Below are positions 1,555-5,871 of a stretch of DNA of 64,000 nucleotides, one piece after another. The notes under the pieces were generated by a model. That model ran no database searches and had not been told where the DNA came from. It worked only from the letters and a program-made list of their open reading frames with translations. The DNA is from Clostridia bacterium (lineage in GTDB: Bacteria; Bacillota; Clostridia; Oscillospirales; CAG-272): positions 2,889 through 66,888 of the forward strand of contig JAFUQQ010000009.1 of NCBI GenBank assembly GCA_017472285.1. Direction: 5' to 3'. Each line of letters starts with the position of its first letter. Position 1 is the first letter of the stretch. The translations under genes were made by a program, and so were the position numbers.

Positions 1555-1587
1555 AAAACCGTTGAGGATTTTCCTCAACGGTTTTTT
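1555..1587. terminator. bidirectional intrinsic terminator between convergent GH10-like and GH78-like genes
   Basis: AAAAACCGTTGAGGA-TTTT-CCTCAACGGTTTTTT: GC-containing stem flanked by an A-run and a T-run. Confidence 0.75.
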
Positions 1588-1601
1588 GAATATCGTTTAA
1601 A
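1585..1601. repeat. 17-bp dyad motif copy A (TTTGAATATCGTTTAAA, 1 mismatch)
   Basis: Lies between the terminator T-tract and the stop codon of the GH78-like gene. Differs at one position from the four exact copies. Confidence 0.7.
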
Positions 1602-3533
1602 TTATAACAATATATGATAATAATAAATAGGAAGTGCGCTCCATCCGTGGCAAAGACTGCCCGCATCGGCAAAATCTCGCCAGCCATTTTCTGTTTCCCA
1701 AACCGTACCGACACCACACTCCACCATCGGACGATAAATTTTTTCAATATCTGCAAGAATAAAGTCACGGTATTTTTCCCGATCGACCACAAGAAGCGTA
1801 TCATAAAGGAAACATTTCATACTGAGCGAGAGTTGTGTAAGAGAATGGTCACTCAATATTTTTTCGCAAAGTTCTTCTCTTTTCCGTTCTTCGCAAGCAC
1901 CGCAAAGGATCGCCAAGGAATTGCCGAGAATGCTATATTTTTTATTTGAATATCGATCAAAAAACATTTCTTTTTCGGCAGAATAGAAATAATTACGGAT
2001 CGATCCATTCAATTTTTCCGCAATTTCCAGATAACGATTCTCAATAGAAAGAGCGGATGCAATCTCAGCCATCCGTTGCAAAGCAAGCGACAGGAGCGTA
2101 TTCAATATCAAGTCATATTCGATATGACGGACAAATCGGGAACTAAAAAATTCCTTCTCGTCCAAGCCGTCGCTCCATTCATAAAAATTCCAATATTGTT
2201 TGCCTTCAAAGGGCAAGACAAGATCTCCCTCGCGTTCCATACGGGAAAGAAAAACGGAAAGAACGCTTTTCAATTTCGGATAGATTTCCCGTAAAAACGC
2301 TGTATCACCCGAATAACGCAGATATTCCGCGCAGGAAGTGAACCAATGCAGCGAAAATGACGGGATCACGAGATCCATTTTGATCGGAAAACAGATCGAA
2401 AGCAGTCCGTCCTCGCGGTCATCTTTGGAAATCAATTCTAAATTCGCCCTTGGAAACCTTGTTTCACCAAAAGCATAATAACCGAAAAGCATCTGATTGC
2501 GGCTATCCATGCAGTAAAGTGCCTGTTCGCGCCAAGGACAATCCTCATAATGCTCGTGCATACAATGTTTCAACGCGCGCACGGAAATATCATAGATTTC
2601 CGATTGCGCCTTGGTCAGAACGGGACGCTTTTTTTCTTCGACAGGATATATCGTCGGCACGATCGCAATTTGAATATCGTTCAAACCATATTCACTCTGC
2701 ACCTCAAGATAAACAGCGGCAAGCCTGCGAAAAGGATTCATATAAACCGTTTTTCCCTTTTTGACTCTAATCTCTACGCTGAAATCCCGACTGCTAATTT
2801 TTCTTTGCACCACGTCATCCGTCAGGTGTTCGGCATAAGAAACAACCAAGGTCTGTTCTTCATCGGAATCCGTTTCGATCTGCAAAAAGCCGACTGTATG
2901 GATACCGAGGTCAAAAACGCTGTCTGTGTCCGATATTTTTTTCAACAATTGACCGCAAACAGATTTCTCCAATTTCAGTTTTTCAACCGGACATATACGA
3001 AGCGGCAAATTTTGGTCCACAATCACGCTTCCGGAAAAACCATTGAGGATACCGGTCTTCCAATCGTCTTCTTTCGTCGCATCATAAAAGAAAGATAATC
3101 CCATTTGTCCCGTAATGATCTTTTTTCGGTGAGAAGAATACGCTGAACTCATACGGGAATCCGTTTTTTCTGAGCTTACGCAAACGGAAACACCGTCGCA
3201 AACAACGTCAAAAATCAATCCTGCATTTCCAGGATAATAAACGGAAGTCGTATCAATACCATAGTACCAAACGACAATTGCCAAATGATTTTCCCCCTGT
3301 CTGCAAAAAGGTTTCAGATCGATCGTATCATAAATCTTATCATACGGATAATCCGCGTATTGTCCGAACGAAACCTGAATACCGTTCAAATAGAGCGCAT
3401 AGTTGCTATCAGCCGAAATCGAAACGGAAATTTCGCCGCCGTTATATTGAAAAGATGAATAAAACTCTCCGTATTCATCCGCGCGCGGAGATTCACTGCA
3501 CCATATCCATTTTGCATTTTCAAATACTTTCAT
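1602..3533 (-). CDS. six-hairpin glycosidase, alpha-L-rhamnosidase (GH78)-like
   Basis: Long ORF. Start placed at MKVFENAKWIW (ATG 3533) because AAAGGGA lies 6 nt upstream. Motifs 'DCPWREQALYCMD' and 'GSLCHGWSALPIYYY' are typical of the GH78 catalytic domain. Confidence 0.55.
   Translation of the reverse strand: MKVFENAKWIWCSESPRADEYGEFYSSFQYNGGEISVSISADSNYALYLNGIQVSFGQYADYPYDKIYDTIDLKPFCRQGENHLAIVVWYYGIDTTSVYYPGNAGLIFDVVCDGVSVCVSSEKTDSRMSSAYSSHRKKIITGQMGLSFFYDATKEDDWKTGILNGFSGSVIVDQNLPLRICPVEKLKLEKSVCGQLLKKISDTDSVFDLGIHTVGFLQIETDSDEEQTLVVSYAEHLTDDVVQRKISSRDFSVEIRVKKGKTVYMNPFRRLAAVYLEVQSEYGLNDIQIAIVPTIYPVEEKKRPVLTKAQSEIYDISVRALKHCMHEHYEDCPWREQALYCMDSRNQMLFGYYAFGETRFPRANLELISKDDREDGLLSICFPIKMDLVIPSFSLHWFTSCAEYLRYSGDTAFLREIYPKLKSVLSVFLSRMEREGDLVLPFEGKQYWNFYEWSDGLDEKEFFSSRFVRHIEYDLILNTLLSLALQRMAEIASALSIENRYLEIAEKLNGSIRNYFYSAEKEMFFDRYSNKKYSILGNSLAILCGACEERKREELCEKILSDHSLTQLSLSMKCFLYDTLLVVDREKYRDFILADIEKIYRPMVECGVGTVWETENGWRDFADAGSLCHGWSALPIYYYHILL
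2669..2685. repeat. 17-bp dyad motif copy B (TTTGAATATCGTTCAAA, exact)
   Basis: Inside the GH78-like CDS, where the minus strand reads ..GLNDIQIA... Confidence 0.85.
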
Positions 3534-3549
3534 GTTATTCCCTTTCATA

Positions 3550-3566
3550 TTTGAACGATATTCAAA
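3550..3566. repeat. 17-bp dyad motif copy C (TTTGAACGATATTCAAA, exact; candidate operator)
   Basis: Located in the predicted 5' UTR of the GH78-like gene, between its -10 box and its RBS. Confidence 0.85.
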
Positions 3567-3588
3567 ACCATCGTCCCTTTTTGTTTGT

Positions 3589-3737: not shown

Positions 3738-4760
3738 ATGAAAACAAAAATAGGAATCAACGGTTTTGGGCGCATCGGTCGGATTGTGTGTAGAATCGCA
3801 TTGCAAAATCCCGAAAAATTTGAAGTAATGGCAATCAACGATCCTTTTTTGACCCCTGAATATATGGCATATATGCTCAAATACGATACGGTTCACGGCA
3901 TTTTTGATAAAAAAATCGATGTTTTAACAGACGGTCTTTGCGTAAGCGGCAAAAAAATCGCTGTCTTTGCCGAAAAAGACCCTAAAGATATTCTTTGGGG
4001 TAGCTACGGCGCAGAATACATCGTTGAATCCACAGGGGTTTTTACAACGACAGAAAAAGCAAGTGCGCATCTTTTGAGCGGTGCAAAAAAGATCGTGATC
4101 TCCGCGCCTGCAAAGGATGAACAAACGCCAACCTTTGTTTACGGTGTCAATTCCGATATGTATCAAAAGGAAATGACTGTTGTTTCGGGCGCATCCTGCA
4201 CAACGAACTGTTTGGCACCGCTTGCCAAAGTCATTCATGAAAATTTCGGCATTGTAGAAGGCTTAATGACAACCGTTCATGCGGCAACAAACACCCAAAA
4301 AACAGTGGATGCTCCTTCATTAAAGGATTGGCGCGGCGGACGCGCGTCTTTTGCAAACATAATTCCCGCAAGTACAGGAGCGGCAAAAGCTTGTGCTCTC
4401 GTCTTGCCCGAGCTGAAAGGAAAACTCACGGGCATGGCATTCCGCGTTCCGACGGTCGATGTTTCCTGTGTCGATCTTACGGTCAGAACCGAAAAATCAG
4501 CTTCTCTTTCCGAGATCAATGCGAGCATACGGAAAGCCTGCGAAAACGAGCTTTTTGATATTCTTGGCTATACGGATGAAGCTGTCGTTTCTTCAGATTT
4601 TTACGGCACATCTTTCGCTTCTGTTTACGACAGCACTGCAAGCCTTGCGCTGAACGAACACTTTTTCAAATTGATCGCTTGGTATGATAATGAATGGAGC
4701 TATTCGAGTCAGCTTTTGCGTTTGCTATCGCATATGAACAGAATCGATCACGAGGAGTAA
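3738..4760 (+). CDS. gap: type I glyceraldehyde-3-phosphate dehydrogenase
   Basis: [15 protein letters not shown] Rossmann start, active-site [16 protein letters not shown] 7 nt upstream. The upstream in-frame extension in the ORF track is rejected. Confidence 0.95.
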
Positions 4761-4763
4761 CAA

Positions 4764-5813
4764 ATGGATATAGGTTCTAATATTCGCTATTACAGAATGC
4801 AAATGGGAATCACGCAAGGCGAGCTTGCCGAAATGCTTTGCGTTTCTCATCAAACCGTCAGCAAATGGGAGCGGCAGCTCGTCTATCCCGATATTACTGT
4901 TTTGCCGAAGCTTGCAACTGCCTTTCATACAAGCATTGACAATCTTTTGAATTTCAATATCAGCGAGGCACAGAAATATATCGCAGAGATCAAAGAAAAA
5001 TTGCATAAATACAACGAAACAGGAAATATTTCTGCACAAAAACAGCTTTTGGAAGCAGCGATTCAAAAATATCCGCAAGAACCGTTTTTCATTGAGAGAC
5101 TTTTGAACGTCTGTATTCCTTTAGCACACACAGAAAAACTTTCCGAAACGGATTTTTTACGCATGAAAGCCATCGGCGACCATTATGTCGGCAAATCCGA
5201 TGATAAAGCATATTCCGACAGTATTTTGCGTGCGCTTGCTTTGCTCTGTGCATCATTTGAACGATATTCAAACGAGGCGATGGTATATTATCAACGTATA
5301 CCTTCTCTGCGTAATATCAAAAGTAATATCGCGCATTTTCTATTACAGCCAGAGGAGTATGCGTGTATTGCGCCGAAAATAATTGCAGATCATATTTATT
5401 ACGCCTCTCTTATGTGCCGGAATCTCGCTTTGCAAGCAAAATCGGAAGACGAGAAAGCAGAAAAATTCCTTGCCTCGAATCAAATCATCGAAAATTTCTT
5501 TCTTGATGAAAATCACGGCTATTTTTCAACCATTTTGACAAAAAATCATTACGATCTTTCTCTGCTCTTTCTGAATACAGACGAAGAACGCTTCTTCATC
5601 CATGCCGAAAAATGCCTTTTGGAAGCGATGCACTATCTTTCTTTTCTGAACGGGAATTATCGGACAATCCTTGGCGAAATCGAATATGATAAAAGCATCT
5701 ATTACGATAAGAATAATTATTTTGAAAAATATAAGCAAAAATATTCAGAAAATATCAAAAACACAAAAATGTCCGTACAAAATGGATTGATCCGTATTCT
5801 TTCAAAATTTTAA
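4764..5813 (+). CDS. XRE-family HTH transcriptional regulator with long helical (TPR-like) C-terminal domain
   Basis: N-terminal 'IRYYRMQMGITQGELAEMLCVSHQTVSKWE' is a Cro/C1 HTH. Starts 3 nt after the gap stop codon. Confidence 0.8.
   Translation: MDIGSNIRYYRMQMGITQGELAEMLCVSHQTVSKWERQLVYPDITVLPKLATAFHTSIDNLLNFNISEAQKYIAEIKEKLHKYNETGNISAQKQLLEAAIQKYPQEPFFIERLLNVCIPLAHTEKLSETDFLRMKAIGDHYVGKSDDKAYSDSILRALALLCASFERYSNEAMVYYQRIPSLRNIKSNIAHFLLQPEEYACIAPKIIADHIYYASLMCRNLALQAKSEDEKAEKFLASNQIIENFFLDENHGYFSTILTKNHYDLSLLFLNTDEERFFIHAEKCLLEAMHYLSFLNGNYRTILGEIEYDKSIYYDKNNYFEKYKQKYSENIKNTKMSVQNGLIRILSKF
5256..5272. repeat. 17-bp dyad motif copy D (TTTGAACGATATTCAAA, exact)
   Basis: Inside the XRE regulator CDS, read as ..SFERYSN... 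This is a different frame from copy B. Confidence 0.85.
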
Positions 5814-5823
5814 AATTCAATAC

Positions 5824-5857
5824 AAAAACGAGACAGCAATCCGCTGCCTCGTTTTTT
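5824..5857. terminator. bidirectional intrinsic terminator between the XRE regulator and the AIM24 gene
   Basis: AAAAACGAGACAGC-AATCC-GCTGCCTCGTTTTTT. Confidence 0.7.
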
Positions 5858-5871
5858 GAACGATATTCAAA
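5855..5871. repeat. 17-bp dyad motif copy E (TTTGAACGATATTCAAA, exact)
   Basis: Lies between the terminator T-tract and the stop codon of the AIM24 gene. This is the same placement as copy A. Confidence 0.85.

Follow-up and report, generated by a model that had tools for sequence, protein, structure and literature searches.

A 17-bp motif repeated across a Clostridia glycoside-hydrolase locus is a predicted operator of a neighbouring TetR/AcrR-family regulator

One-component repressors of the TetR/AcrR family, such as TetR with its operator tetO, QacR, AcrR and the flavonoid-sensing LmrA/QdoR of Bacillus subtilis, are the described systems closest to the locus studied here. We analyzed a 64,000-nt stretch of DNA from a Clostridia bacterium (contig JAFUQQ010000009.1, positions 2,889 to 66,888; hereafter the window), in which a 17-bp near-palindromic motif, TTTGAACGATATTCAAA, recurs in and around genes for GH10-like and GH78-like glycosidases. 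We propose, with a probability of roughly 0.78, that this motif, whose core is TTGAAC-N3-RTTCAA, is the operator of a TetR/AcrR-family regulator encoded at positions 1469-2068 of L117, the 18.7-kb source contig locus (window position = L117 position - 2888); the window begins 821 bp past the end of this gene. As in the known repressors, a small regulator (about 200 aa) that carries a TetR_N helix-turn-helix (HTH) domain at its N-terminus goes with a palindromic operator of some 15 bp whose spacer is odd-numbered, the operator is present in the regulator's own promoter, and the targets lie immediately adjacent. Where those repressors have one or two sites, however, this locus has eight near-identical ones spread along 7.4 kb, four of them intragenic and three fused to terminator T-tracts; its autoregulatory site also differs in lying upstream of the -35 element in the closest orthologues.

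Sites within genes are familiar from other regulators. LacI O2 in lacZ and GalR OI in galE are auxiliary intragenic operators, and the present locus likewise combines a promoter-proximal copy with further copies, apparently of high affinity, in the coding sequence of the gene under control. LacI and GalR, however, loop DNA via tetramers or HU, whereas a TetR dimer has just one surface for DNA binding, so that looping is not expected, and the sites here also occupy 3' ends. The OB sites of plasmid RK2 are 12 copies of a 13-bp palindrome, some of them far from promoters, and they resemble the present motif in that many identical palindromic copies, distributed over a few tens of kb, occur both at promoters and elsewhere; their binder KorB is a ParB-family protein acting at a distance, but no ParB-like gene is present here. 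Within the TetR family, SlmA binds palindromes inside genes and has a non-transcriptional role. The same holds for RefZ (PMC6657595). A TetR-family HTH, near-palindromic intragenic sites and several sites per locus are common to RefZ, SlmA and the present locus. RefZ sites, however, lie hundreds of kb apart, whereas those described here are 0.2-3 kb apart, and, unlike in RefZ and SlmA, the motif keeps a set geometry relative to the promoter in 10 genomes, pointing to transcriptional control.

The copies of the motif are strongly clustered. Searching the 64 kb with up to two mismatches gives six matches against 0.06 expected, and none of 100 shuffles reached six. The relaxed query TTGAAYNNNRTTCAA, with at most one mismatch, matches at seven copy positions only, of which four are perfect, two have one mismatch and one has three; an eighth copy, also perfect, lies 1.5 kb upstream of the window, and the whole set spans 7,382 bp (Table 1). 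A position weight matrix was built from the sites, with a background cut-off of at least 14.5 bits, and no match at this level was found in positions 6001-64000 of the window (58 kb) or in 449 kb of sequence that surrounds unrelated TetR genes. The first-pass annotation had counted five copies in 4.3 kb and none elsewhere in the 64 kb. Its four perfect copies and the one-mismatch copy at 1585 are real, and the other 58 kb are indeed empty, but the copy at 1945-1961 had been overlooked, and a search with up to three mismatches adds the one at 3374-3390. The repeated unit measures 17-19 nt, and past 1-2 nt the flanks show no resemblance, in agreement with the earlier view that they are not conserved.

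Four of the eight copies are intergenic and four are intragenic, the latter being read in two frames, among them LNDIQ (2669) and FERYS (5256) as previously reported. Three copies (L117 1378 and window 1585 and 5855) begin within the T-tract of an intrinsic terminator, and two of these (1585 and 5855) abut the stop codon of a converging minus-strand gene, so that the position between T-tract and stop codon assigned to them earlier is correct. So is the placement of the 3550 copy in the 5' untranslated region (UTR) of the GH78-like gene, where it lies between a promoter matching all 12 consensus positions (3618-3589, minus strand) and the ribosome-binding site and ATG at 3533. Exact matches encoding LNDIQ arise randomly in many unrelated genomes, and clustering by chance or by protein-coding constraint alone, for example through a common LNDIQ peptide, might be considered on this ground. 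The excess over expectation, the intergenic position of half of the copies, the two frames and rare codons of the intragenic copies, and the conservation of intergenic copies while their flanks diverge leave this explanation next to no probability, and we regard it as effectively refuted. An exact scan of a genome collection of about 600 Gb matched the 17-mer at 116 loci or more; among the matches listed, nearly all are single matches in unrelated phyla at roughly the chance rate, three loci have more than one copy, the multi-site genomes being RGIG9002 and Lachnospiraceae STD2_153, and the source species does not appear.

The motif had been described as half-sites TTTGAA/TTCAAA around an asymmetric 5-bp core, fitting a dimeric HTH protein. 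It does behave as the site of such a protein, but a better reading of its core is a pair of 6-bp half-sites, TTGAAC and RTTCAA, around a 3-bp spacer. A fully symmetric form, TTGAACAAAGTTCAA, is present at L216, a locus of a more distant TetR orthologue, and indicates that the true dyad is TTGAAC-N3-GTTCAA, so that the apparent 5-bp asymmetric core would be the 3-bp spacer plus one wobble position per half-site. Under the TTGAAC-N3-RTTCAA core, the orientation of a copy is merely which half-site carries C and which carries T. All copies left of 3550 are on the minus strand and all from 3550 onward on the plus strand; this pattern was rejected as a signal because at most one switch occurs in about 16 of 256 random patterns, which is not significant. 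We also compared the motif with known operators, including cre/LacI, Rex, LexA, the ARG box, TnrA, FNR and the 12-2-12 site of ArsR/SmtB, and all of them fail on spacing. A literature search for TetR together with TTGAAC/GTTCAA found no relevant report.

The assignment to TetR rather than to the XRE-family protein encoded within the cluster is made because it is the TetR gene, and not the XRE gene, whose presence goes along with the motif. The L117 protein matches PF00440, bears the NCBI name TetR/AcrR family regulator and has many TetR matches in the PDB, and the promoter of its gene matches the consensus at 11 of 12 positions. Ten of 11 independent orthologues, at 40-100% identity, carry TTGAAC-N3-RTTCAA in their own promoters, including those at L216 and L217, which still carry it although their neighbour genes are unrelated. 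The HTH segment TS(I/V)RMI..(I/V)GCEVGL(V)YYYFKTK is almost invariant across the orthologues. In a Lachnospiraceae locus (L033), the HTH of a TetR-GNAT fusion is nearly identical to that of the L117 protein, and the promoter flanked by two copies of the motif drives the operon that contains the fusion gene. Because the geometry of the motif relative to promoters is fixed in 10 genomes, a role as a transcription-factor site is indicated. A scan of metagenome contigs by TetR alignment recovered only distant TetR proteins, none with the motif, and these were used as a background set. The GH78-like gene is linked to the TetR orthologue in L205, L206-209 and L210-215. In the outgroup loci L205, L206, L212 and L213, a TetR-PNPOx-BNR operon converges on the GH78-like gene (PNPOx is missing from L213-215), and only the autoregulatory copy is present; the multi-site layout is therefore a feature of the clade formed by the window, L120 and L210.

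The first-pass annotation had named the XRE protein as the binder, with the motif serving as its operator for autoregulation and tying the GH10, GH78, gap/XRE and AIM24 loci together. The XRE gene does lie in the middle of the cluster, contains one copy and has another after its terminator, and its HTH_3 domain is real. However, L122 encodes an XRE protein 58% identical to that of the window and keeps the gap-XRE pair among otherwise different neighbours, and no motif is found in its 15.7 kb; conversely, the L210 locus lacks the gap-XRE pair but retains the motif in four to six copies. The sole NCBI-sourced XRE orthologue in the protein database (P0003) comes from an assembly different from that of L210, the L120 gap-XRE promoter region is without the motif, and the copy within the XRE coding sequence is lineage-specific. 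Moreover, the gap promoter of all three of the XRE genomes window, L120 and L122 has a conserved inverted repeat of its own, TTCGCC-N4/5-GGCGAA, which precedes the gap-XRE -35 element by about 20 nt (window 3628-3644, L120 4286-4302, L122 8876-8892). This repeat occurs also in L122, where the 17-mer is absent, and is a better candidate for the XRE operator than the 17-mer. We consider regulation of the motif by XRE quite improbable and regard the gap-XRE pair as probably a later insertion. An XRE gene also co-occurs with the motif in L008 and L033, but these cases are uninformative, as the proteins have other architectures (a LexA/CI-like S24 repressor and a membrane-anchored HTH protein). AraC was rejected as the binder because its gene is absent from L210.

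A search of 5.8 billion proteins gives just three full-length relatives of the XRE protein, and the pair of a GAPDH paralogue gene, gap, directly followed by the gene for the 349-aa XRE protein is kept in all four genomes with XRE (window, L120, L122 and L123). As to its earlier label as an XRE-TPR protein, Pfam identifies HTH only and no significant TPR in the window protein, and one orthologue has a sub-threshold TPR_14 match (E = 0.007).

A search of related genomes for the motif, as the first-pass annotation had suggested, shows that the orthologous loci L120 and L210 keep it. L120, whose XRE protein is 68% identical, has the same gene order as the window, and its contig stops short of the expected location of the TetR gene, so that this gene is unseen there. 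The junction equivalent to 1585 carries a 16/17 motif (L120 2244-2260) and the junction equivalent to 5855 a 17/17 motif. The terminator stems at both junctions have diverged while the motif has been kept, so that the 3'-junction copies form a clear footprint. Within genes, L120 has an identical one-mismatch variant at the position equivalent to 1945 and a strong site, TTTGAACGGTATTCAAA (26.5 bits), at the position equivalent to 3374, and shows background-level similarity only at the equivalents of 2669 (14.1 bits) and 5256 (13/17). The 5' UTR copy is missing from L120, which has an 8-bp gap at that place, with both promoters conserved.

The gene order in L210 is PHP, TetR, GH10, GH78-like (minus strand) and AIM24 (minus strand), without AraC, and GH10 is directly downstream of the TetR gene. 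Copies occupy the TetR promoter, the GH10/GH78 3' junction (3480-3496, where the copy forms the terminator T-tract and the terminator stem is not that of the window), two places within GH78 equivalent to 2669 (19.6 bits) and 3374, and, as a single copy at 5435-5451, the stretch between the AIM24 stop codon (2-nt spacing, as in the window) and the GH78 ATG. A strong site near the GH78 5' end is thus present in all three loci at varying positions (window 3550, L120 4042, L210 5435), which appears to reflect site turnover under a constant functional requirement. The motif-bearing block seems to have been remodelled by insertions, because AraC and gap-XRE are missing from the related locus L210.

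The intragenic copies bear on the level at which the motif is selected. At the 1945 site, the motif clade encodes FFDRYSN and the outgroups FADRMQN or similar; at 2669, L(N/S)(D/G)(I/V)Q compares with LKELK/LQNLK in the outgroups, and at 3374, LNG(I/V)Q compares with INGEL. At the 5256 site in XRE, the series runs from MENHK in L122 and FETHK in L123 through FEQYS in L120 to FERYS in the window. The motif requires codons that are rare in the usage of this genome (CGA, 5.8% of Arg; TCA, 8% of Ser; TTG, 16% of Leu), and the 1945 and 5256 copies use CGA and TCA; for a given peptide, precisely these codons would arise by chance with a probability of about 0.001-0.004. Because the intragenic copies use rare codons and coincide with clade-specific amino-acid changes, they indicate that the motif is selected at the DNA level, as had been suggested before. 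They would show with unusual clarity how a binding site inside a gene can shape its codons and even the encoded protein sequence.

We also considered whether the copies are structural or recombinational, that is, RefZ/SlmA-like marks of a chromosomal domain or att-like cores for insertion of a gap-XRE cassette. The intragenic or 3'-end placement of half of the copies and the clustering of copies in RGIG9002 would suit such a role, and the top NCBIfam match of the L117 TetR protein is the RefZ model NF037937. This match, however, reaches 54.3 bits against a cut-off of 180 and covers only the N-terminal 90 residues, the HTH region, and the PDB match to RefZ/YttP is weak (26 bits), so that identification of the protein as RefZ was rejected. 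As to recombination, perfect copies in direct orientation, at 3550 and 5855, flank the gap-XRE module (3567-5854) on its two sides, and L210 has one copy and no module, which suggests insertion at, or duplication of, an operator; since the core of the L210 copy is flipped, simple duplication cannot be shown and this origin is unproven. No recombinase or integrase match in Pfam was found among the genes called in the 18.7-kb L117, and L117 and L118, which come from different samples, are colinear, so that shufflon or att-core sites were rejected. The fixed promoter geometry fits a transcription factor instead, and we judge a structural or recombinational role unlikely.

Action of the motif in RNA, as a small hairpin serving as a processing, stability or protein-binding signal, would be in keeping with its palindromic form, with the co-orientation of most copies with the local gene and with the location of several in UTRs beside terminators. 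Folding, however, gives a very weak hairpin of -1.2 to -2.3 kcal/mol, no Rfam family approaches threshold, the copies upstream of the TetR -35 element in six genomes are not transcribed from those promoters, and the 3550 copy is antisense to its own mRNA. An RNA-level role is thus very improbable. Dispersed palindromes of the repetitive extragenic (REP/BIME) kind were rejected on the weak hairpin, the four intragenic copies of eight and the lack of copies in the other 58 kb of the window; the last result also upholds the earlier view of a local regulon rather than a genome-wide REP element.

Under the TetR assignment, we infer from the sequence the following mechanism. A TetR dimer would bind each copy. 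The copy 7 nt upstream of its own -35 element would provide autoregulation, and the copy at about +16 to +32 would block expression of the GH78-like glycosidase, the presumed main target of the system, until a ligand frees TetR; that the ligand comes from a plant glycoside is a guess. GH10 would be under the same control where it is directly downstream of the TetR gene, as in L210. More speculatively, the intragenic and terminator-fused copies may be extra roadblocks, or they may serve as auxiliary sites of high affinity and so keep a reservoir of repressor close at hand across the 7.4-kb locus. Most likely, the system is an ordinary kind of local gene switch, unusual in how many sites it has, in how perfectly these agree and in where they lie, namely within genes and on terminators. 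The work defines a predicted operator, TTGAAC-N3-RTTCAA, for an uncharacterised TetR subfamily of gut or rumen Clostridia, with a putative target set of its own promoter and the GH78-like and GH10-like glycosidases.

Several points weigh against the TetR assignment. The site at the TetR promoter is centred near -51, which is not a classic repressor position. To our knowledge, TetR dimers neither need eight sites nor loop between them, and we know of no established TetR role for sites at 3' ends or inside genes. In addition, the Clostridia metagenome-assembled genome RGIG9002 has eight to nine copies in two 8-kb pieces (L003 5821-7499 and L015 2501-7847) with no TetR orthologue inside the pieces. 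Several of these copies are at gene boundaries, and their neighbours are genes for a 69-aa alpha/beta small acid-soluble spore protein (SASP), SpoIID/peptidoglycan-binding proteins, a polysaccharide deacetylase and dapA. In RGIG9002, the regulon may be larger, or the binder may be encoded elsewhere or be a different protein.

A further possibility, which we hold to be doubtful, is that the eight operators form a ligand-gated array, in which TetR bound within genes and on terminators would act as conditional roadblocks or insulators that set transcript boundaries over the 7.4-kb glycoside-hydrolase locus. If so, the RGIG9002 cluster beside sporulation genes would suggest that this TetR subfamily is used more widely, in a domain-style manner. 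Should the terminator-fused copies be regulated roadblocks, the known repertoire of TetR repressors would be extended; otherwise, the locus is a routine local regulon.

Table 1. Motif copies, genes and promoter of the locus, and TetR orthologues with the motif or a half-site in their promoters. Positions are those of the window unless L117 is named.
Feature	Position	Strand	Identity to L117 TetR	Motif or promoter sequence	Remarks
Predicted operator copy	1585..1601	-		TTTAAACGATATTCAAA	One mismatch; fused to GH10 terminator T-tract; abuts GH78-like stop codon
Predicted operator copy	1945..1961	-		TTTGATCGATATTCAAA	One mismatch; inside GH78-like coding sequence, frame FDRYS
Predicted operator copy	2669..2685	-		TTTGAACGATATTCAAA	Perfect; inside GH78-like coding sequence, frame LNDIQ
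Degenerate copy	3374..3390	-		TTTGAACGGTATTCAGG	Three mismatches; ~160 nt into GH78-like coding sequence, frame LNGIQ
Predicted operator copy	3550..3566	+		TTTGAACGATATTCAAA	Perfect; GH78-like 5' UTR, ~+16 to +32 from predicted transcription start
Predicted operator copy	5256..5272	+		TTTGAACGATATTCAAA	Perfect; inside XRE-family coding sequence, frame FERYS; lineage-specific
Predicted operator copy	5855..5871	+		TTTGAACGATATTCAAA	Perfect; fused to XRE terminator T-tract; AIM24 stop 2 nt away
Eighth copy	L117 1378-1394	-			Perfect; 7 nt upstream of TetR promoter -35 (11/12 promoter)
GH10-like gene	178..1548	+			
GH78-like (alpha/alpha)6 glycosidase gene	1602..3533	-			Pfam Bac_rhamnosid6H, E = 1e-19
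GH78-like promoter	3589..3618	-		TTGACA-18-TATAAT, upstream TG	12/12 consensus, best in region; kept in L120
gap (GAPDH paralogue)	3738-4760	+			
XRE-family HTH gene	4764-5813	+			349 aa; Pfam HTH_3
AIM24-family gene	5874-6716	-			
BcrAD/DUF2229 protein gene	6741-11015	-			
L117 TetR			100%	TTTGAACGATATTCAAA	7 nt upstream of -35
L210 TetR			54%	TTTGAGCGATATTCAAA	6 nt upstream of -35
L212 TetR			59%	ATTGAACAAAATTCAAA	5 nt upstream of -35
L206-209 TetR			56%	ATTGAACAAAATTCAAA	5 nt upstream of -35
L213-215 TetR			55%	ACTGAACAAAATTCAAA	5 nt upstream of -35
L205 TetR			57%	CCTGAACAAAATTCAAA	5 nt upstream of -35
L216 TetR			44%	ATTGAACAAAGTTCAAA	8 nt downstream of -10; PadR/LiaF neighbours
L217 TetR			40%	GTTGAACATTATTCAAA	8 nt downstream of -10; LiaF-type neighbour
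L033 TetR-GNAT fusion, Lachnospiraceae			40% over 187 residues	Two copies	Flanking promoter
L211 TetR			46%	Half-site only	6 nt upstream of -35

Beyond the window, L117 contains a PHP-family gene, the TetR-family gene and an AraC-family gene, the first two codons of which are positions 1-6 of the window. Promoter-like matches in the region are near chance (33 found, 22 expected). Two weak 9/12 matches adjoin copies of the motif. The one at 1910-1939 (plus strand) lies next to the 1945 copy, on the antisense strand, and has an extended -10 element; at the other, 3339-3366 (minus strand), the 3374 copy is 7 nt upstream of the -35-like hexamer, which is the geometry of the TetR promoter. The GC content of the first 6 kb of the window is about 41%, compared with 46-49% across the following 6-20 kb. 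In the AraC-GH10 intergenic region, a conserved block at window 68-88 contains a lone ATTCAAA half-site, AAGTATCGAAATTCAAA, which scores below 12 bits and is kept in L120. It could be bound by AraC or could be what is left of an operator.

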